Below, in pieces: positions 1-27,371 of a DNA stretch of 27,489 nucleotides. Below the pieces are notes generated by a model. That model did no database searches. It was not told the origin of the DNA and worked only from the letters and a program-made list of their open reading frames with translations. This stretch comes from a virus (lineage: Duplodnaviria; Caudoviricetes). Made by a program: the position numbers and the translations under genes. The stretch is from the IMG/VR virus record IMGVR_UViG_3300026972_000007, positions 1 to 27,489 of that record; one strand, written 5' to 3'. Position 1 is the stretch's first letter, and each line of letters starts with the position of its first letter.

Positions 1-110
1 GGGGGAATAAACCCGCCTGCCTCTTGACAGGTTTCTACCCTCCCGCCACCAGTGCGGTCGTAGAAAGCCTTGCTGGTGGTCTGTTTAACAGCCATCAAGA
101 GGGCTTTGAC

Positions 111-422
111 ATGACCAAGCATGACACTGCGGGGAAACCCTCCGCGACCTATCCAATCCCCAAGACGATTACAGATATCGAGGCCGCCTTTGCATCATTG
201 GTGCAGGCTGGCGATCAGGACTTTGACAGTCATCTGATCGAATGGCGCGAAGCACAGTTGCGCAACCTTAGCGCGCTTGATCTGCGTGAGCTTTCAATCA
301 AAATACATTGCCTGTCGGAAATCACCGGCGAATGCGGCGGCCTGACCCCAAAAGGGCAAGAGCTTGTGCATGGCTGGGTGAAATCGATCCGGCGCGATAT
401 TCATAAAATGATGGAGGGGTGA
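111..422 (+). CDS. Small helical phage protein, paralog of 13824..14120
   Basis: ATG at 111 after GAGGG; manual alignment to 13824..14120 gives 31 identities in 91 columns with one gap. Confidence 0.8.
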   Translation: MTKHDTAGKPSATYPIPKTITDIEAAFASLVQAGDQDFDSHLIEWREAQLRNLSALDLRELSIKIHCLSEITGECGGLTPKGQELVHGWVKSIRRDIHKMMEG

Positions 423-425
423 AGG

Positions 426-893
426 ATGAATTTTCGCTGGTTCAAGGAAGAAAAGTGGCCTGCCTGGTTTTGTCCAAAACCTGATGCCGGTCCTTGCCCT
501 GTCGCTTTTCTCGGCGAATATTGGGATGAGTTTTATTTTCTTTCCCCCACAAAGCACTTTGTTCATCTGCATGACAGCGATTTTAAGCAGGCCAAATCGA
601 TCACGCGCATCTTTGATGGTTCTGATGAATGGTTGAGCGTGGCTTTCCCCTGCGGTGCTGGTGGTTCGGCGGCGGGGCCTGTAAGATTCAATCGCCTTCG
701 AGCGCAGGACTGGATCAGAACGAAATCGGTGTCGTTCAGCGAGTTCAACCCGGACAGATATGGTCTGATAGGCCATTGGAAGGAAACGCGCCGCCGGCGT
801 GTGTTTGTGCCTGATGTTCCAGTGACCTCTCTTGAAAATCATGGGGGCAACGTCGTTTCGCTTGGTTCTCGGCGGGACGGTATTGATGGCTGA
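426..893 (+). CDS. Stand-alone homolog of the N-terminal domain of the helicase at 1452..3254
   Basis: Colinear shared motifs AGPCPVxFLG, FY, WLxxAFP, AxDW, FxPD, GxW; starts 3 nt after the upstream stop. Confidence 0.8.
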   Translation: MNFRWFKEEKWPAWFCPKPDAGPCPVAFLGEYWDEFYFLSPTKHFVHLHDSDFKQAKSITRIFDGSDEWLSVAFPCGAGGSAAGPVRFNRLRAQDWIRTKSVSFSEFNPDRYGLIGHWKETRRRRVFVPDVPVTSLENHGGNVVSLGSRRDGIDG

Positions 894-1455
894 TACATCG
901 TTCAAGGTTTTTGCTGCTGCTGCTGTCAGAACGACCGCAGCGCAGGACAGGTGGTTGATCGGGCAGGGTGTTGACCCGGAATGGCTTTATGGCGGTGCAT
1001 CGCGCTATGGTGCGTTGCGGGTTGCTGCCAATGATAACGGGCAATGGTCGCCTGCCGATGAGGGGCAGAACTTCATTGTTGTGCCGGAAAATCCGCTTTC
1101 GGATCCTTGGGACCGGATAAGTCGCGATGTTGGTGACCTTGTCGCCTGTGACCCCCGCGCCCCCGAGAAAATGTTTTCAATCGCAGGATGTCCGATAATC
1201 AACCCTTTTGCGGTCGATTATGCCCGGCATTACGAGATCGATCTAAGGGTGTTTTCCAACCCTGTTGCCTATTTGGTAGGCAAACAGGTGGGCTGCGTGA
1301 TTGCCGATTGGCGGGAAATGACGGCGTTCAAGCTGACAGGCCCGCGAAAAATCGTCTGCGACAGTCTTGAGATCGCCGAGCGGGTTGATGCGTTGTTCGT
1401 CGCGGCCCGTGGCCCTGCTATCCATATTGTGAATACAGAAAGTGAGGCGGCATGA
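886..1455 (+). CDS. Hypothetical replication-module protein, possibly a degenerate primase/TOPRIM fold
   Basis: ATG at 886 overlaps the upstream stop; ATGA coupling to the helicase; LRVFSNPVAYL...GCVI...IVCDS pattern. Confidence 0.65.
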   Translation: MADTSFKVFAAAAVRTTAAQDRWLIGQGVDPEWLYGGASRYGALRVAANDNGQWSPADEGQNFIVVPENPLSDPWDRISRDVGDLVACDPRAPEKMFSIAGCPIINPFAVDYARHYEIDLRVFSNPVAYLVGKQVGCVIADWREMTAFKLTGPRKIVCDSLEIAERVDALFVAARGPAIHIVNTESEAA

Positions 1456-3254
1456 GTGATAACACAGTGCCGCTTAATCAAGCGCGGCGAAAGCAGCCAG
1501 CCAACGAAAACACGCCGGTCCATGTTCATGAAATGGGGGAAAGCAAGCCGGGTGTCCGGCAGCCGAGCTTTAGCGCCGGCCCTTGCCCTGTAAGGTTCTT
1601 GGGGGTGAACAAGGGTGTGTTTTATGTGATCAATGCAAATGGGGAGTTGGACGATGTAAAGCGTTCGCAGATCGGCAGTCGGTCTGTTCTAAAATCGCTT
1701 TTTGGTGAGCAGAATGATTGGCTCGATGAAGCCTTTCCCAAGCTGGACAAGGACGGGGAAGTTTCGAACCGGCCTGTCATGCAGGTCAATGATGCCAGTG
1801 ACTGGGTCATTGCCGAGTGTTCGAAGATGGGACTGTTTCAACCAGATATGGTCCGTGGTCGGGGTGTTTGGCGTGATATCAAGGGCGGGCTGATTGTTCA
1901 TTGTGGCGACGTTTTGTACCTGTCATCTGGCAAGGAAATGATCCGCGCTGGTGAAATCCTTGATGATGGATGGGTTTACCCGGCACGGAGCCCGGTTCCC
2001 AAAGGTTTGCGGCCTGATCTGGACAACCCTGCCTCAGCCGAAAATATGAAGGTCGTCAAAGAGCATGTGGAAAGTTGGCGGTTCTCATCGATATCTGATC
2101 CGGTGGTCTGCCTTGGGATAATGGGCCTGATTTGCCTCACGGGGGCATTGGAAAAGCGCCCGACATTGTGGCTTTGCGGGCCTGCTGGGGCTGGTAAATC
2201 GAGCTTGCTGGACTTCATGACTTTGCCGATCGGGGGCGAGAGGGCAGCGGAAAAAACGTCGGACGCCACGGCGGCTTATGTGCGTGGTATGCTCGATGGT
2301 GCTGCTTTGCCAATCTTCATGGATGAAATGGAGCCGGAATCTGGCAAGGCCGAGGCAGCTACGGCTTTGGCGCGCCTGGCGTTCTCCAATGATCAGGGCG
2401 GTGTTGGTCGTTCCAGCGCATCGCAAGAAACGACATTACAGCATATCATTGCACAGTTCGTCTTTAGCTCAATCAAGCATCCTGAGCCTGGCCCGCAGGA
2501 TGAGCAGCGTATCCACTTTGTAACATTGCGCGAGCGTGTCGCGTCTCAGGATGAAACCGACAGGTTTCGAGATCGGCGCGAGCGTCTCAAGGCGTTGGGG
2601 CCACGGATATGGGCGCGGATGATCCTTGGTTATGGTCGTTTCCGGACCAACCTTTCAGTGTTTGAAAGTGTTCTTGGCGGGGCAACCTATACAGCGCGTC
2701 TTGTGGACAGGATGGCGCCGGTTTTGGCGGCTTACGAAACCTTGATGCATGATGAGGTTATCGCGTCCGGTGTTGCGCGCGACATGATCAGTGTTTTGGG
2801 TCTAGAGGAGGCCCCCAAGATGGATACCGAGTTTGATCAGTGTTTGCGACGGTTGCTGACATCAAAGGTGGAGATATACCGGGGTGGAGCAAGGCCGACC
2901 ATTGGGCAGTTGCTTGAGGCGGTTATCAGTGATCGATCATCGGAGGATGAAGGTATTCCTGATTTGAAGTATTTGGCTGAAAAGTTCTTGCCTTCGATAG
3001 GTATAAAGCTGATGCGCAAAGACCGGTCGTCATTTGCCCCGTGGTCGCATTTTGCCATCGCCAGCAATCATGAGCAGCTAAACATCATCTATCGCGGCAG
3101 CAAGTGGGAAAAGGGCGTGTACCGGCAGCCTTTCGGGTGCCTTGAGGGGGCCGTCCCCGATAAGGTGGTTAAGTTCGGAGGTTCAGCGTGCCGGGCCACG
3201 GTCGTGCCGATTGAGTATGTGGTATCGACGACACATGATGGTGACGACATCTAA
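1452..3254 (+). CDS. Phage replicative helicase/initiator, P-loop AAA+ ATPase (DUF927/Cch-like architecture inferred)
   Basis: 600 aa; Walker A GPAGAGKS, Walker B IFMDE; immediately upstream of an iteron array. Confidence 0.85.
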   Translation: MSDNTVPLNQARRKQPANENTPVHVHEMGESKPGVRQPSFSAGPCPVRFLGVNKGVFYVINANGELDDVKRSQIGSRSVLKSLFGEQNDWLDEAFPKLDKDGEVSNRPVMQVNDASDWVIAECSKMGLFQPDMVRGRGVWRDIKGGLIVHCGDVLYLSSGKEMIRAGEILDDGWVYPARSPVPKGLRPDLDNPASAENMKVVKEHVESWRFSSISDPVVCLGIMGLICLTGALEKRPTLWLCGPAGAGKSSLLDFMTLPIGGERAAEKTSDATAAYVRGMLDGAALPIFMDEMEPESGKAEAATALARLAFSNDQGGVGRSSASQETTLQHIIAQFVFSSIKHPEPGPQDEQRIHFVTLRERVASQDETDRFRDRRERLKALGPRIWARMILGYGRFRTNLSVFESVLGGATYTARLVDRMAPVLAAYETLMHDEVIASGVARDMISVLGLEEAPKMDTEFDQCLRRLLTSKVEIYRGGARPTIGQLLEAVISDRSSEDEGIPDLKYLAEKFLPSIGIKLMRKDRSSFAPWSHFAIASNHEQLNIIYRGSKWEKGVYRQPFGCLEGAVPDKVVKFGGSACRATVVPIEYVVSTTHDGDDI

Positions 3255-3377
3255 GCGAACTTTCTTCCCCCGCGGCCCAATCATTGATTTTGTTGCGCAG
3301 TAATGATGTGTCCTGATTGATAGGTTTGGTCGATGGTATTGGTGGATTTGATAGTTTTTACCATGATTTTCGGTGCT

Positions 3378-3650
3378 GGTTACATCGGAGTTACAGCAAG
3401 TTACATCCGTTTTGTAACCAGTGTTTTGTTGTTTTTCAATTGGTTACGAGGAAAATTCGGGGAAGTTACGTGGTTACAACATTTTTCGGGAAAATATACT
3501 AGATGTGTGTATGCGCGCGTAAGATACGCGCAAATCGTGTAACCATGTAACCTGTAACCTGTAACCTGTAATAAGATATTGATATTATTAAAGAAAGTTA
3601 CGAAAAATCTGGTTACAAATGCCTGTAACCAGCTGTAACCAGCTGTAACC
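3378..3650. repeat. Putative replication origin: symmetric GTTAC/GTAAC iteron array with AT-rich segments
   Basis: GTTAC at 3379, 3390, 3400, 3443, 3465, 3473, 3597, 3612; GTAAC at 3414, 3539, 3547, 3554, 3561, 3625, 3635, 3645; AT-rich tracts near 3421-3440 and 3568-3600. Confidence 0.8.
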
Positions 3651-3667
3651 GGCTCGAGGAGGTTTTG

Positions 3668-4036
3668 ATGTTCGCAGCTATCGGTTCGCATTCCGAGCAG
3701 GCTATCGCAGATGAAATCGTTGATCTGTTTGCCGTTGTTCATGAGGAGCGTGAGAGGTTGTCTTTGAGCGCTGATCAGGCTGGTGGCCTGTTTCTGGCAT
3801 CTGCATTGGCAAATCAGCCGCTAAAGAAGCCTTCTATGTCGATCGCCGAGAAAGCGCGGAAGTCACCGGTGCAAGAGGCAGCGAAGTGGGCTGTGCGGTG
3901 TGTCGGCTATCAGCTACATGACAAAGGCGGCATTGATTTGATGATGCGCGTATCGGACTTGGTGACAGAGGCGTCGCCAAGGGCAGCGAGTTGGCTGGAT
4001 CACAGGTGGAATGGCATTGGTAATTGGATGTCCTGA
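3668..4036 (+). CDS. Hypothetical phage protein
   Basis: Strong RBS GAGGAGG at 3656-3662; 122 aa; C-terminal GGxxLM...LDHRWNGIGNW. Confidence 0.75.
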   Translation: MFAAIGSHSEQAIADEIVDLFAVVHEERERLSLSADQAGGLFLASALANQPLKKPSMSIAEKARKSPVQEAAKWAVRCVGYQLHDKGGIDLMMRVSDLVTEASPRAASWLDHRWNGIGNWMS

Positions 4037-4054
4037 TCAGGAAAGGGTGAAGCG

Positions 4055-4642
4055 ATGGCTAAACAGGATGTAATGGATATCTGGTCGGCCCTGCAATGGG
4101 TGGTTCGGGACCAGAAGGCAGATCAAGCGTTTGGAAATCCTTTGATGATGGGAGATGCCCGACCTTTGGGCAGTATCACGGGCAGGATGGTGGATGCTTT
4201 GGAATACGGCGTCGAGATATCAGGGTCGCATGGTTCGATGCCGGACCTTGACCCGGATGCCGAACTGATCTGGCTGGGTGTTGAAATGCTGTTTGATCAA
4301 TGGCGCAAAGGTGATCTTGCGGGTGAGATTGGTGCGAATATTCCGGTTCAGATGCAGCGTTGTTTGAAGAAATGGCAGTTGCATCCTGTCGTCGAGATGG
4401 TGAACTGCGCGCGTCGTGGTGATATGCCCGACTGGGTTCCGGGTGGTTGGCTGAACGATTCGGGGCTTACGCGTCGAGAAGTTGAGGAATGTCGCCTGAA
4501 TTACCTGATGGTCTGGGACATGTTGGCTGTTTTGTGCAAGAGGTTGCAGGGCAGTGATCGGTTGGGCATAGTGCTTGAAATGCCCAGTATTCCGCGCTCT
4601 CCATGGAATCTGCGAAAGAAAATGAAAAAAGATATTGACTAA
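4055..4642 (+). CDS. Putative late-gene regulator (activator/antiterminator by position)
   Basis: 195 aa; last gene before a promoter-terminator pair and the HNH/terminase genes; function inferred from synteny only. Confidence 0.6.
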   Translation: MAKQDVMDIWSALQWVVRDQKADQAFGNPLMMGDARPLGSITGRMVDALEYGVEISGSHGSMPDLDPDAELIWLGVEMLFDQWRKGDLAGEIGANIPVQMQRCLKKWQLHPVVEMVNCARRGDMPDWVPGGWLNDSGLTRREVEECRLNYLMVWDMLAVLCKRLQGSDRLGIVLEMPSIPRSPWNLRKKMKKDID

Positions 4643-4664
4643 ATTCCGGGGCTGTGGGTACATA
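4635..4664 (+). promoter_or_regulatory. Candidate late promoter
   Basis: TTGACT at 4635-4640 and TACATA at 4659-4664 (18-bp spacer), directly upstream of a terminator. Confidence 0.4.
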
Positions 4665-4685
4665 AAACCGTTCCGGGAACAAATT

Positions 4686-4722
4686 GCGCCTGCCGCTCAC
4701 CAGCGGCGGGCGTTTTCTGTTT
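4686..4722 (+). terminator. Intrinsic terminator (tR'-like position)
   Basis: Stem GCGCCTGCCGCT / AGCGGCGGGCGT with CACC loop, followed by TTTCTGTTT. Confidence 0.75.
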
Positions 4723-4902
4723 CTGGGCTTGCTACCGGATGTTCCTTGCGGTTGATGATGCTGGCTTGGTTTCCTGATAGCTTCCTCCCTCAATCTGACA
4801 TGATTGCACTCGCCGCGATGTTCCCTATGCCTGACTATCCAGCTCATGCTGGTGTGGATGATGGCGGCTGGGACATCGCCGCAGTCTTTTGGTGGTGATG
4901 TG

Positions 4903-5286
4903 ATGCCGAACCTGCCGACAAAGCCATGCGCTGTCGCCCGGTGCGGCACGCTGACCAGGGAGCGATACTGCGAGAAGCATCAAGCCGAACACCGCAAGCG
5001 ACAGGACGAACGGCGCGGAACCGCAGCCAAGCGTGGCTATGGTTCCAAGTGGCAGAAGGCGCGCAAGACGCATCTGGCAAAAAATCCGCTGTGCGTTCAT
5101 TGCCTTGCCAAAGGATTTGTGGTCGCAGCAACGGTGGTTGACCATCGCATCCCGCACAAAGGTGACCAGAAGCTATTCTGGGACACGAGCAACTGGGATT
5201 CATGCTGCAAGACCTGTCACGATACTAAGACCGCCAAGTATGACGGTGGGTTCGGTCACCCGGTAAAAAGCAGGCCAAGCCATTGA
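4903..5286 (+). CDS. HNH endonuclease, terminase-associated (HK97 gp74-like)
   Basis: RGYGSKWQKAR, PLCVHC, VVDHRIPHKGD, NWDSCCKTCHDTKT; upstream of terS. Confidence 0.92.
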   Translation: MPNLPTKPCAVARCGTLTRERYCEKHQAEHRKRQDERRGTAAKRGYGSKWQKARKTHLAKNPLCVHCLAKGFVVAATVVDHRIPHKGDQKLFWDTSNWDSCCKTCHDTKTAKYDGGFGHPVKSRPSH

Positions 5287-5329
5287 TAGATATGGCGTAA
5301 GGCAACGAGTTCTGGGATAGGAATTGGTT

Positions 5330-5355
5330 GTTCTTTTAATGTTCCGGCAGGGTTC
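5330..5355. promoter_or_regulatory. Tandem alphaproteobacterial LexA-box-like motif GTTC-N7-GTTC-N7-GTTC
   Basis: GTTC at 5330, 5341 and 5352 (11-bp period), intergenic between HNH and terS. Confidence 0.5.
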
Positions 5356-5371
5356 TGTTTTGTTCTCGTTC

Positions 5372-5452
5372 GGGGAGGGGGAGGGTTCAATCTCTGCGCT
5401 CCAGAAGCCACAGACCGGGTTCGAGGTCACGTGTTCATGGGCGAGAAATTGA
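5372..5452 (+). other. Candidate cos packaging region
   Basis: G-rich tract GGGGAGGGGGAGGG then TCAATCTCTG...GACCG...GAGAAATT between HNH and terS, the usual position and look of cos in HK97-like phages; exact cut site not determinable. Confidence 0.55.
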
Positions 5453-5496
5453 AAAGAGAAAACCCAAGGAATAAAACCCTATGGTGAGGTGAAGCC

Positions 5497-6024
5497 ATGG
5501 CACGGGGACGCAAGCCTGATCTGCCAAGCAATGTTGTTCGCTTGACACAGGACGGCAAAGAGCCGGGCCAGCAGACTCAGGACGCAGCGGAACTTTCCGC
5601 AGAGCTAAAGCCTCGCGGGCTATCGAAGGACGTTGCAAAGGTTTGGGATTCGGTCGCGCCGGTTCTGGCGGAAAAGCATCGGCTTGATCCCGTGTTTGTT
5701 GTGGCGCTGGTCGAGCTTTGCGAATGCATCGCCGAGCTGAATGATTACCGCGCGCTGTTTCGCAGCAAGGTGAAGATCACCGACGCCAACGGCAAGCAGC
5801 GCACCGAGGTTTACGGCAAAACCTACGAGGTTGATGGCCGCAACGGCAACCAGATCAAGACCCGCCCGGAGGTCGCGCAGTTCAATGAAACCCGCCGGAC
5901 CATGTTGCGCCTGATCGCTGAATTTGGCATGACGCCATCTGCTTCGCGATCGTTGGCGTCGGCGGCAGGTCAGGGTGATTTGTTCGATGACTTCGACGAC
6001 TTCGCATCCGCAAGGGGCACGTAA
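5497..6024 (+). CDS. terS: Terminase small subunit (P27 family)
   Basis: MARGRKP start, KTRPEV, EFGMTPSAS motifs; precedes terL. Confidence 0.9.
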   Translation: MARGRKPDLPSNVVRLTQDGKEPGQQTQDAAELSAELKPRGLSKDVAKVWDSVAPVLAEKHRLDPVFVVALVELCECIAELNDYRALFRSKVKITDANGKQRTEVYGKTYEVDGRNGNQIKTRPEVAQFNETRRTMLRLIAEFGMTPSASRSLASAAGQGDLFDDFDDFASARGT

Positions 6025-7780
6025 AAAGCATCGCCCGGTCACCAGAAAGGATCTGGCAAAGAAAGTACCCGAGGCGATCCTTGGGCATGTCAGCACGGTC
6101 TACGCCCTCGACATTGTCGAGGGCAAGAAGCCAGCCTGCAAGAAACGCATCGCCGCCTGTCAGCGCCAGCTTGATGATCTGGTGCATGGCGAAAAGCGCG
6201 GGTTGGTGTTTTCGATCCCGCGTGCTGATCACGCGATGCAGTTCTTTGGCTACCTGCGCCATTCAAAGGGGCAGTGGGGCGGCCAACCTTTTGTGCTTGC
6301 CGATTGGCAGGCGTTCTGCACATCGGTCATCTTCGGATGGCTGACAGCCGAAACGCTGACCCGCCGGTTTACATACGTCTATGTCGAGGTGCCGAGGAAA
6401 AACGGCAAGTCAACATGGCTGGCCCCGATCGGGCTTTACATGCTGATGGCTGATGGCGAGCCGGGGGCAGAGGTTTACACCGCTGCGACCAAGGCCGATC
6501 AGGCCAAGATTATCTTTCAGGAAGCTGATCGCATGGTTGCGACCAGCCCGGCACTGCGCCGCCGCGTCAAGCGGATGGCGCGGCACATGGAACATCCGAA
6601 AAGCTTTTCGGAACTGAAATACATCTCGGCAGATGCCAAGAAACTTGATGGCCTTAATAGTCATTGCAACCTGGTTGATGAAGTGCATGCCCACCCGGAC
6701 GGTCAATTGATCGAGGTGCTTAAAACCGGGATGGGCGCACGTCGCCAGCCATTGCATGTCGAGATCACAACGGCGGGCACAAACCCGTATTCGATCTGTC
6801 GTCAGCATCATGATTACACCGTCAACGTTTTGAACGGTGTGTTTGAGGATGACACTTGGTTCGGGTTCATTTGTTCGATCGATGATGGCGATGACCCGTT
6901 TGATGAAGTGTCATGGGCAAAGGCCAACCCGAACTATGGAGTTTCGGTTCTGCCCGAGGCGCTGCGCAAGGTATCGATCGAGGCCAAGAACAACCCGGCA
7001 TCGCTTTCCGGGTTCAAGCGGCTTCGCCTGAATGTCTGGTCGCAGACATCGGAAATCTGGCTGGACATCGACAAATGGCGCGGTTGTGAAATCGTCATTG
7101 ATCGCGAAAGCATGCGGGGCCGCAAGTGCTATGTTGGGCTTGATCTTTCATCGGTCAGCGATATCACCGCTGCGGTGTTGGTCTTCCCGCCTGTCGATCC
7201 GGGGGAGCCTGTAAAGGTTCTGCCATTCTTCTGGGTGCCAAAGGCGACGATCGAGAAACGCGCCGCCGACAAGGCCGTGCCGTATGACCAATGGTTGATG
7301 CAGGGGCTTATCCGCGAAACGGACGGGTCGGCAACCGACTATGACGCGATTGAAAGTTTCCTGATTGGCAACGAAACGCTTGGCGTTTCTGGTCTGGTTG
7401 ATGAATTCGAAATCGCCGAGGTCTGCTATGACCGCATGTTCGCCGGTCAGATTATCCAGCATCTTGAGGATGCCGGTTTGGTCTGCGTTTCCTGTGGACA
7501 GGGGTTTTATGGCATGGCAGCACCGTGCCGAGAGCTTGAGCGCCTGGTGCTTGATCAGGGCATTGCCCACGATGGCAACCCGGTCATGGACTGGATGATA
7601 TCAAACACATCCGTCAAGCAGGATGACGCCGAAAACAAAAAGCCGATCAAACCCGATACGCGCAAGGATATGCGCAAGATCGATGGGGTGGTGGCGATGT
7701 TGATGGCGATTGGCCGGATGATTTCGGCAGAGGAAGATCAAGTCGTAACAGTCGATTCAATATTCGGTGGTGTCGCATGA
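5987..7780 (+). CDS. terL: Terminase large subunit
   Basis: Walker A VPRKNGKS, Walker B LVDEVH, ITTAG, nuclease motifs GLDLS and KIDGVVA. Confidence 0.97.
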   Translation: MTSTTSHPQGARKKHRPVTRKDLAKKVPEAILGHVSTVYALDIVEGKKPACKKRIAACQRQLDDLVHGEKRGLVFSIPRADHAMQFFGYLRHSKGQWGGQPFVLADWQAFCTSVIFGWLTAETLTRRFTYVYVEVPRKNGKSTWLAPIGLYMLMADGEPGAEVYTAATKADQAKIIFQEADRMVATSPALRRRVKRMARHMEHPKSFSELKYISADAKKLDGLNSHCNLVDEVHAHPDGQLIEVLKTGMGARRQPLHVEITTAGTNPYSICRQHHDYTVNVLNGVFEDDTWFGFICSIDDGDDPFDEVSWAKANPNYGVSVLPEALRKVSIEAKNNPASLSGFKRLRLNVWSQTSEIWLDIDKWRGCEIVIDRESMRGRKCYVGLDLSSVSDITAAVLVFPPVDPGEPVKVLPFFWVPKATIEKRAADKAVPYDQWLMQGLIRETDGSATDYDAIESFLIGNETLGVSGLVDEFEIAEVCYDRMFAGQIIQHLEDAGLVCVSCGQGFYGMAAPCRELERLVLDQGIAHDGNPVMDWMISNTSVKQDDAENKKPIKPDTRKDMRKIDGVVAMLMAIGRMISAEEDQVVTVDSIFGGVA

Positions 7781-9021
7781 ACCTGCGCAAAAGAATGTTC
7801 GGCTGGATGACGCGCGCCCAGACAAGCGAACAGGAAATCAACACGCGCCTGTGGCGCAACGAACCGTTTCTGAACCTCAACACATCCGCACCCATCAGCC
7901 ATCACACGGTGTATTCCTGCATCAACGTGATTGCCGAGGGGTGCGCGATGCTGCCTTTTGTGCTGTATCGCAAACAGGATGGATCGCGGGTCGAGGCGAT
8001 TGACCACCCTTTGTATGACCTGCTGCAATACAGCCCGAACCCGCATATGACGGCGTTTCAGTATTTGCAGATGTTGTTCTTTGACAAGCTGAACTATGGC
8101 GATCACTTCGCGCTTAAGGTGTTCGATGAACAGGGCCGCATCGCGGAGCTGTACCCGATCGAATATGCGCGCGTCATGCCGTTCTGGTATCTGGAAGCCG
8201 AAACCGGATTGCGCCGGCGGGCCTATCGCGTGACGGGCTATAACGGCCTGCAGGCGATCTTTCTAGAAGATGAAATCTTTCATCTGCAGTTCAAGCCGAT
8301 CACGAAGGGTGACAATTACGGCCTGCGCGGTGCGTCGGTCTGGTCTGCCTATCAGGCGGAAACGCTTGGTGTAGCCCAGAAGGCCGAGGAATTTGTATCA
8401 GGTGGCCTGTCCAATGGCGTGAATATGTCAGGGCATGTTTCTGTTGATGCGCCTCTGACTGACGAAATAACCAAGCAGATCAAGAAGCAAATCGCCCGCG
8501 AATATAGCGGTGCGGACAAGAATGGTGTCGTCGGTGTCTTTGGCAACGGGGCCAAGTTCTACCCGCACAGCCAAACCAACAAGGACGGGCAGATTCTTGA
8601 AACCCGCAAATATGACCGGTCGATCATTGCCGGGATCTTGCGTGTATCTGCACACCTGATCAACGATCTGGAAAAGGCGACGTTTTCGAACGTCGAACAT
8701 CTTGACCTTGCGCATTACAAGCACTGCCTTCTGCCGCATCTGATTGATCTGGAGCAGACCGCGCGCAAGGATTTGCTGACCGATTCCGAGCGCGGCCAAT
8801 ACGTGCTTGGTCATGATGACAGCCTGTTGCTGCGCGGTGATCAAAAGTCCTTTGCCGAGGTCTTGGAAAAGGCCGTTCAAAACGGGCAGATGACCCCGAA
8901 CGAGGCGCGCGCCAAACGGGGTCTTCCGCCGCTTCCGGGTGGTGACCAGTTGTTTATCAACAGCGCAAGCATTCCGATTGAAATGGCCGGACAGAACAAG
9001 GGGCAAGCCAATGACGCTTGA
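7777..9021 (+). CDS. Portal protein, HK97 family
   Basis: VYSCINVIAE, PNPHMT, ATFSNVE, LLRGD, MTPNEAR..GLPPLPGGD. Confidence 0.96.
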   Translation: MNLRKRMFGWMTRAQTSEQEINTRLWRNEPFLNLNTSAPISHHTVYSCINVIAEGCAMLPFVLYRKQDGSRVEAIDHPLYDLLQYSPNPHMTAFQYLQMLFFDKLNYGDHFALKVFDEQGRIAELYPIEYARVMPFWYLEAETGLRRRAYRVTGYNGLQAIFLEDEIFHLQFKPITKGDNYGLRGASVWSAYQAETLGVAQKAEEFVSGGLSNGVNMSGHVSVDAPLTDEITKQIKKQIAREYSGADKNGVVGVFGNGAKFYPHSQTNKDGQILETRKYDRSIIAGILRVSAHLINDLEKATFSNVEHLDLAHYKHCLLPHLIDLEQTARKDLLTDSERGQYVLGHDDSLLLRGDQKSFAEVLEKAVQNGQMTPNEARAKRGLPPLPGGDQLFINSASIPIEMAGQNKGQANDA

Positions 9022-9628
9022 TAACGAACTGCGTGATGGCAGCAACCCGTCGGAACTTGAACTGCGGTTCAATGTCGATGTCGAGTTCCGGGCAGAGGAT
9101 GACGCGGCCCGCATGGTCAAGGGCTATGCCGCGATGTTCAACAGCAAAACGAAAATCCGGATGTATGGCGGCCATACCTTTGAGGAGTGGCTAAACCCCG
9201 GCTGTTTTGCCAAGTCGATTGCAGATGGCAAGGACGTTCGGTTCCTTGTTGAGCATATGTCATTCATGCTGCTGGGCCGCACAGGTGCCGGAACGCTGAC
9301 CCTGACAGAGGACAAGCGCGGTCTGGCGTTCGAGGCGGTCCTGCCGGATACAACGCTTGGCCGCGATACCTATGAAAACATCCGCAACAAGAATTACCCG
9401 GGCATGAGCTTTGGGTTCCTGCCGGTCAAGAACCGGACTGAATACGATGACCGCGGGCGTTTGATCCGCGTTCAGCACGATGAAGTTGACGTGCGCGAAA
9501 TCACGGTCACGTCAATGCCTGCCTATCCGAAAACCAGCGTGGCCGTCCGGTCGCTGGCAACCCGGCCCGAACCGGGCAACTTTGCGCTGCGTGCGCGTCT
9601 TGCAAAACTGAAAGGTTACCACCTATGA
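9011..9628 (+). CDS. Prohead maturation protease, HK97 family
   Basis: GYAAMFN, FLVEH, LGRT, GMSFGF, EITVTSMPAYP. Confidence 0.95.
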   Translation: MTLDNELRDGSNPSELELRFNVDVEFRAEDDAARMVKGYAAMFNSKTKIRMYGGHTFEEWLNPGCFAKSIADGKDVRFLVEHMSFMLLGRTGAGTLTLTEDKRGLAFEAVLPDTTLGRDTYENIRNKNYPGMSFGFLPVKNRTEYDDRGRLIRVQHDEVDVREITVTSMPAYPKTSVAVRSLATRPEPGNFALRARLAKLKGYHL

Positions 9629-10974
9629 AGACCCTTAAGGAATTGATGAAGCTGCGCGCGGCCAAGTTCGATGAACTTGAAGCGCTTGCCAAACAGGAAG
9701 AAACCGACGAAACCCGCGCCAAGTTCGATGAACTTGAAGCGGAAATTGGCAAACTTGATGAAGACATCACCCGCGCGAAAAAGCTGGAGCAGCGCCGCTC
9801 CGAAGCAGCCGCGCAGGTTCCCGATGATGATGCAGGTAACGGCGACCAGGAACAGGGCCAGACCCGTTCGCAGAACCCGTTCAATGATCGCCCGACTGCG
9901 GCGGCTGCCCCGGCAGAACAGCGCAACCTTGCCAATGAATTTGGCATGTTTGTGCGGTCTTATGCTGCGGCCCAGTGTGAACAGCGCGATGGCAAGCATG
10001 TTCATCCGTCCCAGTTCGCCAAACGTGCTTATGGCGACAATCATCCGGTTGTTGCCAATCTTGAGCGCGCGCAGACCGCGTCCGAAAACTCCGGCGGCGG
10101 CTTCCTGATCACGCCGAACTATATGCCGGAAATCATCAAGTTGTTCGGCCCCAATACCATTGTACGTCGCAATGCCCGTTCGGTGCCTGGCAATGCGACT
10201 TACTTCAAGGGCAAAACCGGCGCGTCCGTCGGCTATGTCGGCGAGAACGAGCAGGGCGAGGTTACCGGCGTTACCTTTGGCACGATGACGATGGCCGAAA
10301 AAGACATCGCCGCGATCTTGCCGATCTCCAAAAAGCTGCTGCGCAACACCGGTTACAACGTCGAAGCCTATTGCCGTGACGAACTTGTCCGTGCGTCAGC
10401 GGAATTCGAAGACCTCAAGTTTCTGTACGGCACCGGTGTCGGTAAGGAAGTGAAAGGCTACTATCACTCAATCAAGGCGGCTAACGTCTTCGCTGCGGCG
10501 AACAAAACCGCCCCGACCCGCGCCGAGGTTATCACGGAACTTCACAAGGTTCTGAAAGCGTTCCTGTCTGCGGATGTTCCGATGAACGGGACCAACCCGC
10601 GCTGGTTCATGAACCCGCTGGTGGTTCTCTACCTGTCGGAAGTCTATCAGGGCGATGTGAAGGCGTTCCCGACGCTGGATGGCCCGAACCCGACGCTGCT
10701 TGGTTATCCGGTTGATACCAGCACCCAGATCACCGGCCCGGCTGGTGATGGTGGCGATATCTTCTTTGGCTGCCATGACTATGCGATGGTTGCCGATACC
10801 GTGACCATGTCGCTGTCAACCAGTGACCAGGCGTCGTTCAAGGATGCTGCGGGTAACACCGTCAACATGTGGGCGATGGGTATGCTGGGCATCAAGCTGG
10901 ATATGTCGCACGATTTCGGCTTCCGCTATGATCAGGCATTCGCCCGTATCTCTGCCGTCAAGTGGGGTCAGTAA
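9625..10974 (+). CDS. Major capsid protein, HK97 fold with N-terminal coiled-coil delta domain
   Basis: 449 aa; coiled-coil N-terminus, GGGFLIT, LYGTG, TLLGYPV; follows the protease. Confidence 0.95.
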   Translation: MKTLKELMKLRAAKFDELEALAKQEETDETRAKFDELEAEIGKLDEDITRAKKLEQRRSEAAAQVPDDDAGNGDQEQGQTRSQNPFNDRPTAAAAPAEQRNLANEFGMFVRSYAAAQCEQRDGKHVHPSQFAKRAYGDNHPVVANLERAQTASENSGGGFLITPNYMPEIIKLFGPNTIVRRNARSVPGNATYFKGKTGASVGYVGENEQGEVTGVTFGTMTMAEKDIAAILPISKKLLRNTGYNVEAYCRDELVRASAEFEDLKFLYGTGVGKEVKGYYHSIKAANVFAAANKTAPTRAEVITELHKVLKAFLSADVPMNGTNPRWFMNPLVVLYLSEVYQGDVKAFPTLDGPNPTLLGYPVDTSTQITGPAGDGGDIFFGCHDYAMVADTVTMSLSTSDQASFKDAAGNTVNMWAMGMLGIKLDMSHDFGFRYDQAFARISAVKWGQ

Positions 10975-11003
10975 GCCGGTTTCCGGTTTGACCGCAATCT
11001 GAT

Positions 11004-11030
11004 CGGGTCGCCTTCGGGCGGCCCGTTTTC
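11004..11030 (+). terminator. Intrinsic terminator after the capsid gene
   Basis: CGGGTCGCC-TTCG-GGCGGCCCG then TTTTC; cUUCGg tetraloop. Confidence 0.8.
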
Positions 11031-11052
11031 ATTTGCAATGGAGTATTGAACG

Positions 11053-11514
11053 ATGGATACCGCACTTGGCCGCGACAATGCAGCCTATCTGACCCCGATC
11101 TTTGCGGCGGCTGAATATGACCTGACCGCCGGCGCAGGCACTGACAATTCCGAACAGACATGGGCAACGATTGATCGCCTGACCGCGTTTGACAATGTCC
11201 GCCACGCCAGCGCGACCGCGATTGTCATGGCGACCGCCACCCTTGCCGAAGGCGAAACCCTGACCATTTCCGGCATCTGGGAGCATTCCGTTGATGGTTC
11301 GACCTGGGTGGAAATCGGCACCGATACCACCATGCTGACCCTGACCGGTGGTTCTGGTGGTTCGACCGAAACGGGTGCTGCTGATTTGAATATCAATCTG
11401 GCCGAGGCCAATCAGCACGTCCGTTTCAAACAGACCACGGACCTTTCGGCATCTGGCACCGACACCGCCAAGGTGTCGGGCGTTTATATGTTCTCTGCGC
11501 CCAGCGAAATCTGA
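11053..11514 (+). CDS. Probable virion structural protein (capsid decoration-like)
   Basis: 153 aa, Thr/Ala/Gly-rich beta-type; RBS GGAG; directly after the capsid gene. Confidence 0.65.
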   Translation: MDTALGRDNAAYLTPIFAAAEYDLTAGAGTDNSEQTWATIDRLTAFDNVRHASATAIVMATATLAEGETLTISGIWEHSVDGSTWVEIGTDTTMLTLTGGSGGSTETGAADLNINLAEANQHVRFKQTTDLSASGTDTAKVSGVYMFSAPSEI

Positions 11515-11535
11515 TCGCGGAACCGACTGTTGAAC

Positions 11536-11562
11536 AAAGGGGGCGGGTGACCGCCCCTTTTT
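11536..11562 (+). terminator. Intrinsic terminator (possibly bidirectional)
   Basis: AAAG-GGGGCGG-GTGA-CCGCCCC-TTTTT. Confidence 0.8.
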
Positions 11563-11578
11563 GCGTAAGAGGCGCGGC

Positions 11579-12166
11579 ATGGATGTATCGCTTAAAACGG
11601 CACCGGGTGAACGGATTGTCACGCTTGATCAGGCCAAGGCGCAGTTGCGTGTGCCAACCGCGTTCAACGATGAAGACGACTATATCAATAGTCTGATTCT
11701 GGCGGCGGAAAGCTATATTGATGGGCGGGACGGTATCCTCGGCCGTGCCCTGATTTCACAGACATGGACCGGCACGCTTGATGATGCGTTTCCGCAGGAA
11801 ATCCGGGTGCCATTGCCGCCGTTGCAGTCGGTGTCATCGGTCAAATACATCGATGGCGACGGTGTGGAACAAACCCTTGCCGCCAGCGAATATCAGGTCA
11901 TCAACAATGTTGAGCCCGGTCTGATCGTTCCGGCCTTTGGCAAGACATGGCCGACGGTACGTGCGCAGCGCCAGGCGGTCACGGTTGAATTTGTTGCCGG
12001 GTATGGCACGGCGGCGGAACTGCCGGAAAAGGTGCGCCAAATGGTGCTGTTTCTGGTAGGGCACTGGTACATCAACCGGGTGCCGATCAATGTTGGCAAC
12101 ATCGTCAACGACATACCGGAAACATTCATGTCGCTGTTTAATGCGACCCGCAAGTGGGGGTTTTGA
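11579..12166 (+). CDS. Head-tail connector protein (gp6 / phiE125 gp8-like)
   Basis: VTLDQAKAQLRV, EDDYINSLILAA, LPPLQSVSSVKY, FVAGYG, LVGHWYINR. Confidence 0.92.
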   Translation: MDVSLKTAPGERIVTLDQAKAQLRVPTAFNDEDDYINSLILAAESYIDGRDGILGRALISQTWTGTLDDAFPQEIRVPLPPLQSVSSVKYIDGDGVEQTLAASEYQVINNVEPGLIVPAFGKTWPTVRAQRQAVTVEFVAGYGTAAELPEKVRQMVLFLVGHWYINRVPINVGNIVNDIPETFMSLFNATRKWGF

Positions 12167-12345
12167 TGGCGAAGGTGTTGCTAAAGGTTGTTGACGGCAC
12201 CGGGCATCAACATGCCGCCGAAATCGCGTTGCGGGACGTGAAAATGATCAAGGCGCGGGTCTTGGTCGGGCTGTGGCTGATCAAGCTGGGCTGTGCCGTG
12301 ATGTCTGTCCGCAGTGAAAGCGAAGGTTGTGATGCAGCCCGGTGA
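12166..12345 (+). CDS. Small hypothetical protein (59 aa)
   Basis: TGATG coupling to the upstream stop; fills the gap to the head-closure gene. Confidence 0.55.
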   Translation: MAKVLLKVVDGTGHQHAAEIALRDVKMIKARVLVGLWLIKLGCAVMSVRSESEGCDAAR

Positions 12346-12655
12346 AATGAATGAGCTGATCACGTTTGAGCGGGTCGGTCATACCAAGAATGCCGGGGGC
12401 GGGTCGGTGGAGGCTTGGGCGCAGCTTGGGGCGAAAAGCTGGGCCAAGGTCAAGCCGATGTCGGGCAATGAACAGGTGCGCGCCGCACAGGTGGGCAGCA
12501 GCACCATGTATGAAATCGGGCTGTATCGCCGCACCGATGTCAACGAAGCCGATCGGATCGTGCGGAGCAACGGCGATGTGTTGCGGATCCGATCCGTGCT
12601 GCGTGAAACAAATGAAGCCTTCATGACCGTCGTGGCCGAGAAGGTGACGCCTTAA
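12332..12655 (+). CDS. Head closure / head-tail adaptor (SPP1 gp16-like)
   Basis: MQPGEMNELITFER, WAKVKPMSGNE motifs. Confidence 0.88.
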   Translation: MQPGEMNELITFERVGHTKNAGGGSVEAWAQLGAKSWAKVKPMSGNEQVRAAQVGSSTMYEIGLYRRTDVNEADRIVRSNGDVLRIRSVLRETNEAFMTVVAEKVTP

Positions 12656-13434
12656 CCGAATTCGTCTTCGAAGCTTTGGAACAGTTCGAGTTCTTCTGGT
12701 TTCAGGACGCCATCAGCTTTGATCAGTTCGTGGCAGGCATCAAGGAATTGCCGCCGCTGTTGCAGGTCAAGGTCCCAAATGGCGTCAAAGGCGTCGTTGA
12801 TCTGGCTTTCAGTAGGGTGGAGGCGTTTCAGGTAGGCGGTAATCGCTGCGGTGTCCGCGTCCATCATAGGTCGGCCAAGGTCAATACAGCCTTTGGCGAC
12901 GTGATCGAGCATGAAATCAAGTTCGGCTGGATGCATGAATCCGTCGCTGCGCGATAGTGTTGAAAGCAGCCGCATTTGATGGCGGAATTTCTGCTTGGCG
13001 AACTGGCCAGCCGGGGCGCGTTTTTCAGCGCCCGGTGTGAAATCGCTGGGCGGAAAGCGGTTCGGGTCCACATCGGTCGAGAGTTCGTTGCGAAAGAACG
13101 CGACCGGGTGATAGGTCACGCCGTCGACATCTATGACCGACAGAATGCCGGTGCTAAGGAATGATCGGTACTTCTTGCGCTCGTGACAATGAGCATGAAT
13201 GCGATAGGCCGTTGGCTCTGTATCGCATCGGTGAACCGTAATACGGCGCATGGTGATGCGGTTTCGGCTGTCGCAATATTCGATGGCAAAGGAGAGGTCG
13301 CCAATATCAAGTTCGGCATCCGGGTTGCTGGCGGGCGCGAAGGTAATGGCTTCTTCCGGTTCATCATGAATTGGCGGCCATGTGCCCGGAATGGGCGGTG
13401 CGTTCTTGGCGTGGAAGATTTTGTTTACTGGCAT
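12652..13434 (-). CDS. WYL-like domain + TerB-like domain protein
   Basis: IEYCDSRNRITMRRITV...IHAHCHERKKYRSF (WYL pattern); LSRSDGFMHPAE and LIKADGVLKPEE (paired TerB motifs). Confidence 0.8.
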   Translation of the reverse strand: MPVNKIFHAKNAPPIPGTWPPIHDEPEEAITFAPASNPDAELDIGDLSFAIEYCDSRNRITMRRITVHRCDTEPTAYRIHAHCHERKKYRSFLSTGILSVIDVDGVTYHPVAFFRNELSTDVDPNRFPPSDFTPGAEKRAPAGQFAKQKFRHQMRLLSTLSRSDGFMHPAELDFMLDHVAKGCIDLGRPMMDADTAAITAYLKRLHPTESQINDAFDAIWDLDLQQRRQFLDACHELIKADGVLKPEELELFQSFEDEFG

Positions 13435-13497
13435 TTCTCACCCCTTTGCAATCAGGGGTGGAATGCTACGACCGTCATATGATGGGAGTCAAATATT

Positions 13498-13737
13498 TCA
13501 GGACTTGCGCAGTCGAACGCCGGGGCCTTCGCCGTTCTCGGCAATGAAGATTATGCCTGCGTTTTCAAGTGCGGTCTGAATGGCAGAAAGATTCGGTTTG
13601 TTGATATTTGGCACAGTGTCGTCGAATGACTCCGCCCTGCGCACAGTCATCAATCCAACCTGTGCCTTTTCGGCCAGTTCTTGGGCTGTAATTTTTATTA
13701 TGGCGCGTGCTGCTCGTATCTGCGAACCAGTGATCAT
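13498..13737 (-). CDS. XRE-family HTH transcriptional regulator
   Basis: QIRAARA...QELAEKAQVGLMTVRRAE...ALENAGIIFI..NGEGPGVRL. Confidence 0.92.
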   Translation of the reverse strand: MITGSQIRAARAIIKITAQELAEKAQVGLMTVRRAESFDDTVPNINKPNLSAIQTALENAGIIFIAENGEGPGVRLRKS

Positions 13738-13771
13738 TTTTGTACCATGTGGTTTTTAATTGACCAAATCA

Positions 13772-13804
13772 ATATCAGGTGATACTTAAAGTACCACCTG
13801 ATAT
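13772..13804. promoter_or_regulatory. 33-bp palindromic operator in the divergent promoter region
   Basis: ATATCAGGTG-ATACTTAAAGTAC-CACCTGATAT, one mismatched pair; overlaps TTGACC(13760)-N17-TACTTA(13783). Confidence 0.75.
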
Positions 13805-13823
13805 CTGAAAGGGCAATTAAATC

Positions 13824-14120
13824 ATGGCGGACATAAAGTTTTCAGTCGCCTCGACCGTCACCGATCTGCGGTTTGCCTATGAGGCGCTGCGCTTGATCGG
13901 GGATGGAGATGGCGACGGCAATCTAGCCGACTGGTACGAGGATCAGCTTGTCGCTGTTCGGGCACGGGACATGAATGAGTTGTGCATCAAGTTTGATGCC
14001 CTGATGTCACTGGCCGAGCCGAATAGTGGTGCGTTGTCAGAGCGCGGTCATGCAATGCTTATTGCGCGGGTCGCCAGCCTGCGGGTTGATATTCATGCGC
14101 TGAAAGGTGGTGTGCAATGA
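13824..14120 (+). CDS. Small helical phage protein, paralog of 111..422
   Basis: Shared TxTD, GDxDxD, WxExQL, ELxIK, VxSxRxDIH; ATGA-coupled to the Bro-N gene. Confidence 0.82.
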   Translation: MADIKFSVASTVTDLRFAYEALRLIGDGDGDGNLADWYEDQLVAVRARDMNELCIKFDALMSLAEPNSGALSERGHAMLIARVASLRVDIHALKGGVQ

Positions 14121-15004
14121 CGATGCCAATGGTATTCGATTTCGAGGGGCGCGAGGTTCGCACAATCGAGCGTGAAGGCGTGATCTGGTTCGTGCTGGTG
14201 GATATCTGCAAAGTGCTTGCTGTCAACAATAGCCGTCAGGCAGCAACACGTCTGGATGATGATGAAAAAGATGACGTCATTATTAATGACGCCATCGGTC
14301 GGGACCAGTCAGTGACCATCATCAATGAAAGTGGTCTTTATTCGCTGATCCTGACCAGTCGCAAGGAAAGTGCCAAACGGTTCAAGAAATGGGTGACGGC
14401 AGAAGTTCTGCCGACACTGCGCCGGACTGGTCGTTATGAAATCCCGCCTGTGGCCCCGACCGGGGATATGGATACGGGGGATGATTCTGAATACGGCACG
14501 GCAGAGGTCAATTCGGCCTTGGCGGTTGTACGCGAAGTCCGAAAGATTTTCGGGCGGGCGGCGGCGCGGCGCATCTGGAACCAGTGTGGTGCGTTGCCGA
14601 TGGTCGAACCTGAGACGGATTACACCGGCCTTGACAGTTCCAAGGGTGTTGCCTGCCTTGCCTGGTTGATGGGCGCGTCTGCCGATGGTGGTGGGCTGAT
14701 CGGTGATTTGATCACCGAGGCGCGGCATTCTGCTGCGGCGGTCGAACAATTGCGGGCAATGGGTATCCGGGTTTGCGATGCGACCTGTCCCGGCGGTGTT
14801 CTGGTGGCGAATTCCCATCCGGCCTTGCGCCGGGTGTTTGCCAATACCAAATGGGCGACCGGATGGCGGATGGCGTTAATGTCGCTTCCCGGTGCGTTGC
14901 CATCAGCTGGGCCAACGCGGTTCGGCCCTGTCAATTCGCGTGGCGTGGTGGTGCCGATGCAGGTCGCCATGCCATCGCCGTCGCGGGAGTTTGTGGCGGC
15001 ATAA
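14117..15004 (+). CDS. Bro-N antirepressor-like protein with a C-terminal domain homologous to the helicase C-terminus
   Basis: FDFEGREVR..WFVLVDICKVL..INESGLYSLILTSRK..AKRFKKWVTAEVLPTLRRTGRY; C-terminal motifs align with the last ~130 aa of 1452..3254. Confidence 0.9.
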   Translation: MTMPMVFDFEGREVRTIEREGVIWFVLVDICKVLAVNNSRQAATRLDDDEKDDVIINDAIGRDQSVTIINESGLYSLILTSRKESAKRFKKWVTAEVLPTLRRTGRYEIPPVAPTGDMDTGDDSEYGTAEVNSALAVVREVRKIFGRAAARRIWNQCGALPMVEPETDYTGLDSSKGVACLAWLMGASADGGGLIGDLITEARHSAAAVEQLRAMGIRVCDATCPGGVLVANSHPALRRVFANTKWATGWRMALMSLPGALPSAGPTRFGPVNSRGVVVPMQVAMPSPSREFVAA

Positions 15005-26503: not shown

Positions 26504-27042
26504 TGGACTTTGATTGGAAATCGATTGTCAAAACCGTTGCGCCAGTTCTGGGCACGGCCATCGGTGGTCCGCTTGGTGGCCTTGCAACGCGCACCATCGC
26601 AGGTGCGCTTCTGGGTGATGAAGATGCCAGCGAAGATCAGATCGCCGCGGCTGTGCAATCGGCATCGCCTGATCAATTGCTTGCCTTGAAAAAAGCGGAT
26701 CAGGAATTCAAGCTCCGAATGAAAGAGCTTGATATTGATATCGAGCGTATTCACCAGCAAGACCGCGATAGTGCCCGCACCCGCGAAACCAAAACAGGGG
26801 ATAGCTGGACGCCGCGCATTCTTGCTTTCATCGTGATCTTTGGCTTTCTGTCGATGGTGGCCTATGTCATCGCGAAGGGGTTGGGGGTTCAGAATGCAGA
26901 CAGCGCCGCGCTGGTCGGGACTCTGATCGGTTATGTTTCTGCCAAGGCGGAACAGGTGATCTCGTACTATTTCGGCAGCAGTGCCGGCAGCAAAAGCAAA
27001 GATGCGGCTGTTCATAAGGCGCTTTCACAACAGAAGCCCTAA
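26503..27042 (+). CDS. Holin-like membrane protein (GTA 3TM-holin-like)
   Basis: VAPVLGTAIGGPLG, DRDSAR, two TM segments, VISYYFGSSAGS. Confidence 0.75.
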   Translation: MDFDWKSIVKTVAPVLGTAIGGPLGGLATRTIAGALLGDEDASEDQIAAAVQSASPDQLLALKKADQEFKLRMKELDIDIERIHQQDRDSARTRETKTGDSWTPRILAFIVIFGFLSMVAYVIAKGLGVQNADSAALVGTLIGYVSAKAEQVISYYFGSSAGSKSKDAAVHKALSQQKP

Positions 27043-27371
27043 CCAGCCACCCGGCACCCATCCTTGCAGGCTCCGGCCTTGTCGCAAGGGTGGGGCTGGT
27101 CGGTGTGAATGGCGCAGTAAAGCGGTTTGGCCGGGGTCGCCTTTGTTCCCGGTTCCATGATCGGGAATGCACCAAGCGATCCGCACCTGGCGCACCGCAG
27201 CTTGCGGAGGATATCCCCCAGCCCGATATGCGGCCCGTGCCGATCGATCAACGGGCGATATGCAAGCCGCCCGTCATGATCGCAAAGATGGTTGGCGCAA
27301 TAGATCCGGCAATGATCATTCATTCTGGCCGCATCCAGCAGACTGATATAGCCATCCCAATCGTGACCCAT
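27039..27371 (-). CDS. Small Cys/His-rich Zn-binding protein, probably SOS-regulated
   Basis: YCANHLCDH...LRCARCG plus a second Cys/His cluster; LexA box upstream. Confidence 0.72.
   Translation of the reverse strand: MGHDWDGYISLLDAARMNDHCRIYCANHLCDHDGRLAYRPLIDRHGPHIGLGDILRKLRCARCGSLGAFPIMEPGTKATPAKPLYCAIHTDQPHPCDKAGACKDGCRVAG

Follow-up and report, generated by a model that had tools for sequence, protein, structure and literature searches.

The stretch of DNA analysed here (the window) comprises all 27,489 nucleotides of the IMG/VR virus record IMGVR_UViG_3300026972_000007 (Duplodnaviria; Caudoviricetes), which is linear and 59% complete. It carries two gene pairs, in each of which a small gene stands directly before a gene with homology to a non-catalytic part of a likely replicative helicase encoded in the same window (Table 1). 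The first pair lies in the early/replication end (1-4642), which is followed by head genes, the tail region and the lysis genes; the second pair lies behind a head-closure gene. An earlier reading of the sequence, the original prediction, had taken both pairs as a recurring module of helicase decoys. Every named homolog of the genes under study comes from Thalassospira, and therefore the source is most likely a temperate phage of this genus. Related loci are given L-numbers (such as L001, L009 and L044) and related phage records G-numbers (G001-G008).

The five open reading frames (ORFs) on which the original prediction was built are all present, and the homologies that it proposed were confirmed. 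The two small proteins are paralogs with 31/91 identical residues (34%; BLASTP expect value E=3e-17) and an alignment score of 133 against a shuffled mean of 24 (z=25). The protein of 426-893 (N-fragment) aligns to helicase residues 30-164 with 25% identity (E=4e-11, z=15.6), and both proteins match PHROG 21086. Residues 230-282 of the protein of 14117-15004 align to helicase residues 536-588 (E=2e-5, z=6-7, here 6.4), and with relatives included the match covers a whole domain of ~120 residues (about 172-290 versus 456-590). In the shuffling test that the original prediction had named as a check on its alignments, with 2000 shuffles per protein pair, no shuffle scored as high for any of the three homologies, and six control pairs among the same proteins scored at chance level. 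In agreement with the prediction, neither piece spans in the alignments the helicase region that holds Walker A (GPAGAGKS, about residues 243-250) and Walker B (FMDE, about 289-292). We found purifying selection on all four genes of both pairs; the ratios of nonsynonymous to synonymous substitution (dN/dS) are simple pairwise counts and, because they are low, all four are maintained genes.

Table 1. Features of the window discussed in the text, with position, strand and supporting evidence
Position	Strand	Feature	Evidence
1..50	+	3' half of sRNA-Xcc1 (RF02221) leader RNA, cut by contig start	Aligns with full Rfam matches in L001, L009
111..422	+	Small helical protein, A1 clade, 103 aa, early-operon slot	dN/dS 0.18-0.22
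426..893	+	Detached diverged copy of helicase N-terminal domain, 155 aa	dN/dS 0.17
886..1455	+	Gene X, no known family, coupled to helicase	Takes the place of the CHC2-type primase of G002 and G003
1452..3254	+	P-loop ATPase, 600 aa, likely replicative helicase	PHROG 21086 7e-76; PHROG 35358 3e-38; dN/dS 0.06-0.07
3379..3650	.	GTAAC/GTTAC repeat cluster, likely replication origin	Copy count versus shuffles
12652..13434	-	Optional cargo gene behind XRE	PHROG 6785 N-part 2.5e-8; weak TerB-like C-part 0.0011
13498..13737	-	XRE-type helix-turn-helix repressor, divergent from small gene	PHROG repressor 4e-4; TIGR03070 2e-5
13755..13821	.	Palindromic intergenic region, likely operator and divergent promoters	33-nt arms, 76% complementary
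13824..14120	+	Small helical protein, A2 clade, 98 aa, ATGA-coupled to Bro gene	dN/dS 0.04-0.06
14117..15004	+	Bro-N (residues 13-99), middle helical segment, helicase-type C-domain (about residues 172-290)	Pfam, PHROG, alignments

The small proteins belong to a narrow family. A profile search of 1.84 billion representatives returned 9 proteins at E<=0.001 (representatives at 50% identity), every named one from Thalassospira, and the neighbourhoods that could be read divide into two clades, A1 (type 111-422) and A2 (type 13824-14120). The proteins are mildly acidic, and the A2 model has four predicted helices at a predicted local distance difference test score (pLDDT) of 85. No match was found in Pfam, PHROG or NCBIfam, structural searches with the model gave no informative match, and neither the library nor the structure searches detected likeness to Arc/Mnt or any other family.

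A mobile XRE-small gene-Bro cassette

The A2 clade was found in 19 places including the window, many of them near-identical and representing ~7 independent types. In all 18 places with a visible downstream gene, a Bro-N gene follows directly with an ATGA overlap; its C-domain is complete in 16 of them and cut by contig ends in two. A divergent XRE-like ORF lies upstream of the small gene in 17/17 related loci examined. Together with the spacer palindromes this is the gene layout of an immI-like secondary regulatory cassette, the operator being predicted. In relatives the XRE allele and the spacer palindrome are replaced together, and the small gene can remain 96-100% identical.

We also found that the position of the cassette differs among phages: in the window, G001 and G002 it follows the head-closure gene, and in G003, L004 and L006 it precedes the adaptor gene. 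In the latter three the flanking genes are only 36-46% identical to those of the window, and the small gene is 96-100% identical. The cassette (13498-15004) is a mobile unit because its position changes while the small gene stays nearly identical between such diverged neighbours. Behind the XRE gene, the cargo gene of the window has a 51% identical neighbour beside XRE in L004 and L006; in G002 and G003 it was not found. Several alleles of XRE, each accompanied by a palindrome of its own, are swapped before near-identical small genes (L002, L003, L004, L017, L034, L037 and L039; 13498-13821 in the window), and the same allele types reappear before distant small genes. One record, G007, carries two divergent XRE-small-Bro cassettes (L051 10925-12159 and L052 7925-9105).

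The original prediction had taken the gene behind the A2 small gene as a detached helicase domain and passed over its N-terminal half, which makes it a fusion: residues 13-99 are a Bro-N domain (PF02498, Pfam 2.8e-22, 79.6 bits versus the curated cut-off of 25.6). The whole protein matches a PHROG of anti-repressors at 1.3e-43, and residues 174-284 match PHROG 30955, of function not known, at 1.6e-14. A conserved helical segment with the pattern VREVRKIFG..AAR.IW lies between Bro-N and the C-domain (14474-14629 of the window) and has no Pfam match. The C-domain has no Pfam match either, and no PDB sequence match was obtained. The structure model of the helicase, examined for a winged-helix fold of the P4 alpha type in this domain, was usable only for its N- and C-domains (residues 459-592 at pLDDT about 60-84, with helices and a terminal beta-hairpin), and Foldseek with the whole low-confidence model gave nothing informative. 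A profile built from Bro C-domains alone finds 9/9 of the helicases tested. The dN/dS of Bro C-domains lies between 0.08 and 0.34.

Whether the C-domain was taken from the resident helicase, as had been claimed, can be judged from scores and trees. The window C-domain scores 70 against the resident helicase, versus 122 for G002, 116 for Bordetella phage PY223, 109 for Azospirillum and 107 for G003. A tree in which it groups with the resident helicase is rejected in the approximately unbiased test (p-AU 7.6e-5; the group was named after the first tree had been seen, and branches are long). A single origin of all Bro C-domains is neither supported nor rejected (support 72/74 and 53/16); these domains are 22-26% identical to the aligned helicase domains, and one clade of them sits on a very long branch. 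Because the scores favour other helicases and the clade with the resident one is rejected, the C-domain appears to have been captured long ago from the helicase family rather than copied from the helicase of the phage itself.

The cassette is also found in phages of another type, without this helicase. Five cassette-bearing records had no match to the helicase profile, in a scan that lacked a positive control. Three of them (G006-G008, 60-82% complete, replication genes present) were then examined whole; with four cassette copies between them, they have no helicase or N-domain of this family in a search that matched 4/4 positive controls. They have no GTAAC cluster of the kind that follows the window helicase, at most 4 copies being found per 300 nt versus 12-13 in controls. 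Each encodes a 546-aa Walker-A protein beside a primase-like or an early region; in G007, where alone the family was scanned, this protein is a DUF5906/Pox_D5 helicase. The claim that the piece derives from the resident helicase and co-occurs with it was therefore contradicted, by the rejected clade and by these three records. In addition, G002 and G003 have the second pair without the first.

The early slot, the N-fragment and the helicase

The product of 1452-3254 is likely a helicase, as judged from its Walker motifs, its database matches and its gene context. It matches the C-terminal part of a primase family in PHROG, and tblastn matched 24 phage records, many annotated as primase or primase/helicase. 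An Azospirillum record has the homolog fused to a primase-like N-part, and in G002 and G003 a CHC2-type primase gene lies directly before the helicase. No primase gene was recognised in the window, where that place is taken by gene X, which is kept directly before the helicase in the window, G001, G004, G005 and L044.

The repeat cluster behind the helicase is likely the replication origin. GTAAC/GTTAC occurs 16 times in 3255-3664 versus 0.86 copies expected, and none of 20000 shuffles reached this number. Such repeats lie behind the helicase in five records, with similar clusters directly behind it in G001-G004. G005 alone differs, having GGAAC/GTTCC repeats instead (after position 6794 of L009) and a helicase 60% identical, and G005 and the GTAAC records are thus a natural pair for mapping origin specificity.

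At the other end of the early region, L001 and L009 have full Rfam matches to sRNA-Xcc1 upstream of the same start codon as that of the A1 small gene. Covariance scores in relatives are 67.6, 65.3, 67.2 and 53.1 bits (cut-off 53 bits); the window copy, a 3' half only, gives no Rfam match. The first ~12 codons of 111-422 match the start of the relatives' antirepressors (MTKHD start). In G005 the leader and these 12 codons run into an antirepressor gene (PHROG 6e-32), in G002 and G003 the same leader and start run into a gene of the same antirepressor type, and in the window, G001 and L044 the same start leads into the small protein instead. The exchange at this slot suggests that the small gene recombined into it, because the shared leader and start codons run into either gene. 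The early-slot antirepressors of G002, G003 and G005 bear a different C-part from that of the window Bro protein. Early regions of relatives also contain Proteo-phage-1, C4 and a second sRNA-Xcc1 RNA (L001 1775-1858; L028 2403-2486; L018 3118-3202).

The N-fragment gene lies in the same frame as the A1 small gene, after its TGA and 3 nt, and has an 8-nt overlap with the next gene, whose ATG is at 886. As it overlaps the start of gene X and gene X in turn overlaps the helicase, it reads as part of the replication transcript. Only 3 clusters of homologs were found. The three N-fragments form one long-branched clade (100/100) among Thalassospira-type helicases, and the N-fragment profile finds 6/9 helicases tested, namely the six Thalassospira-type ones. 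Among the six records with this type of helicase the N-fragment is present in two and absent from four; three of these four are incomplete, and the stretch upstream of the helicase could be read in each. A third run of small gene, N-fragment and helicase is likely, judging from the consecutive accessions RCK40474, 40475 and 40477.

Does the small gene consistently precede a helicase-derived piece, as predicted? In the A2 clade the pairing with the Bro gene recurred in all 18 places with a visible downstream gene. In the A1 clade it did not: with identical 3-nt spacing, the N-fragment comes next in 2/4 sequenced places (window and G001) and an unrelated 81-aa gene in the other two (L044, and G004 behind a truncated remnant of the small gene). 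This 81-aa gene (L044 670-915; L008 648-893) replaces the N-fragment, belongs to no known family and has a dN/dS of 0.12.

Regulatory switch, decoy or competitor

The observation behind the original prediction was largely right and its interpretation overstated: what it described in the second pair is shuffling of the Bro-network kind in an XRE-fronted cassette. We favour, with moderate confidence, a reading in which module shuffling in temperate phages of Thalassospira gave rise to the two pairs separately. The cassette would likely be an antirepressor-type switch, and 111-893 a variable early slot whose N-domain is likely a replication accessory. XRE would bind the palindrome and keep the small gene and the Bro gene off; once this repression is lifted, the coupled small and Bro proteins would be made together. 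Bro-N would bind DNA, and the C-domain, captured long ago from this helicase family, may have a regulatory role as a second module that binds DNA or protein, and not act as a mimic of the resident helicase, the output of the cassette being antirepressor-type or otherwise regulatory. In the early slot the A1 paralog would have displaced the usual antirepressor. The N-fragment, coupled to gene X and the helicase, would be made in the lytic early transcript as an optional accessory, which could bind the helicase or a partner (gene X) as an adaptor or a brake, assisting or restraining replication. The small-protein family would accompany antirepressor operons rather than pieces of helicase. Two oddities remain, the C-domain of helicase descent and the free but conserved N-domain, the latter unexplained.

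Several points weigh against this reading. The few records sampled are all from Thalassospira and in part redundant, and the three helicase-lacking records are incomplete. The antirepressor function of the Bro protein is likely, as an annotation from PHROG and not from an assay, and the fold search for the helicase/Bro C-domain, made with a low-confidence model, identified no fold. The N-fragment profile ranks helicases of the resident type first (E 1e-11 versus 3e-10 to 7e-9); pairwise scores do not place the N-fragment closest to the resident helicase (109 versus 119-124). Finally, the window, G001 and likely a third lineage (RCK40474/40475/40477/40488) have a small paralog before both helicase-derived pieces, which is treated here as coincidence.

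Known systems offer precedents for parts of this arrangement. In phage P22 the immI region (mnt / arc-ant) is a region of secondary immunity. The cassette is like it in having a small repressor divergent from a two-gene operon that ends in an antirepressor-type gene, among late genes, and unlike it in its XRE-type repressor and in its small gene, for which no likeness to Arc/Mnt was detected. Antirepressor operons controlled by RNA are familiar from c4-ant of P1/P7 and CI of P4. In APSE phages, sRNA-Xcc1 is reported upstream of an ORF6N protein (PMC7313666). The early slot shares with all of these a structured leader RNA before an antirepressor-type early gene in G002, G003 and G005; it differs in the window, where a small helical protein and a helicase N-domain follow and the leader is RF02221, not C4 (RF01695).

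Bro-network proteins (Bro-N / KilA-N / ORF6N / Rha / ANT) are described as domain-swapping regulators near immunity RNAs (PMC10111431). The window protein likewise has an N-terminal DNA-binding domain, Bro-N, fused to an exchangeable C-part, and such genes lie near immunity-type RNAs and in mobile zones. It is unlike them in its C-domain, which has its homolog at the C-terminal end of a family of phage helicases and matches none of the ten Pfam domains of the network listed there. A phage helicase family is thereby newly connected with the domain swapping of the Bro network, through a C-domain common to helicases and antirepressor-type proteins. The analysis also defines a small family of four-helix proteins and a free helicase N-domain that is conserved. 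We found no description of a Bro-N and helicase C-domain fusion or of a free helicase N-domain in titles and abstract openings, a coverage that leaves out most subscription journals.

The alpha protein of phage P4 has a C-terminal origin-binding domain on a primase-linked helicase, and P4 Cnr is an early protein of ~100 aa. The window is similar in its C-terminal domain on a primase-linked helicase beside a likely iteron origin, with a ~100-aa early protein nearby; it is unlike P4 in that its helicase is not of the D5/P4 type by Pfam scan and its small protein has no Cnr match in the libraries searched. A possible but unlikely alternative is that the C-domain is a captured origin-binding domain, with which the Bro fusion would sit on iteron origins of prophages that have a helicase of this family, whether rivals or co-residents, the small protein being a modulator. 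The helicases that end in this domain have iteron clusters directly behind them, and the window's copy of the domain is nearer to G002/G003-type helicases than to its own; the presence of the cassette in phages not using this helicase would fit a tool against competitors. Odn of phage ICP1 is a precedent, being a phage protein directed to a rival's iterons by a captured origin-binding domain (PMC8263062). The two share the reuse, in another fusion, of a domain common to a replication protein; Odn, however, has a nuclease domain and demonstrated iteron specificity, whereas the partner in the window is Bro-N and its origin binding is putative. No nuclease or effector domain accompanies the C-domain, and the low identity of Bro C-domains to helicase domains and their one very long-branched clade also speak against this alternative. 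A repressor stands before the cassette, which is therefore likely silent in the lysogen. That the helicase C-domain binds origins at all is suggested by analogy with P4 alpha, the fold search being uninformative. If the C-domain kept origin specificity, the fusion would be a counterpart to Odn that lacks the nuclease, and prophages would have a new means of competition; if it lost it, we would have a genus-restricted case of familiar domain shuffling. A broader version, which we consider rather unlikely, is that non-catalytic parts of the helicase twice turned into regulators, with the Bro fusion of the mobile XRE-gated cassette acting through its captured C-domain on iteron origins of rival prophages, also where the carrier phage uses another helicase, the free N-domain poisoning or tuning ring assembly and the four-helix family as shared switch.

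It is distinctly unlikely that the cassette is a toxin-antidote or stress module, in which a growth-inhibitory Bro fusion would be neutralised by the small acidic helical protein encoded upstream and the early paralog would add antidote in lytic growth. The strict small-before-large order with ATGA coupling, the moron-like mobility with two copies in G007 and the mild acidity of the small proteins would all suit such a module. However, Pfam, PHROG and NCBIfam scans of the Bro fusion and the small protein revealed no toxin domain, catalytic or other, such as would mark a type II toxin-antitoxin module, the repressor is a separate divergent gene, and the A1 paralog occurs before unrelated genes.

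The decoy module of the original prediction, a ring poison and an origin occupier that act against the resident helicase and are each paired with a small partner or antidote, is unlikely, and we regard it as improbable even among the alternatives. The significance of both homologies, the selection on all four genes and the joint occurrence of both pairs in the window, G001 and the likely third lineage are what it would lead one to expect. But pair 1 is broken in half of its sequenced places, pair 2 exists without pair 1 and, in G006-G008, without this helicase, the C-domain does not come from the resident lineage, and the partner, a Bro-N fusion, stands under an XRE of its own. Least probable by far is that the N-fragment is a decaying, functionless remnant of a local duplication. 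Its position two genes before the helicase, the 16/17-nt DNA match between the two and its absence from most related records would fit this, but an intact frame with 78-92% identity in three lineages at only 25% to the helicase, and a dN/dS that stays at 0.17 outside the overlap with gene X, largely refute it.

Two further observations concern other parts of the window. The N-terminal part of the major capsid gene contains a 57-nt tandem duplication with 77% identity (9661-9779), and a small cysteine-rich ORF lies 3' of the lysis genes (27039-27371).

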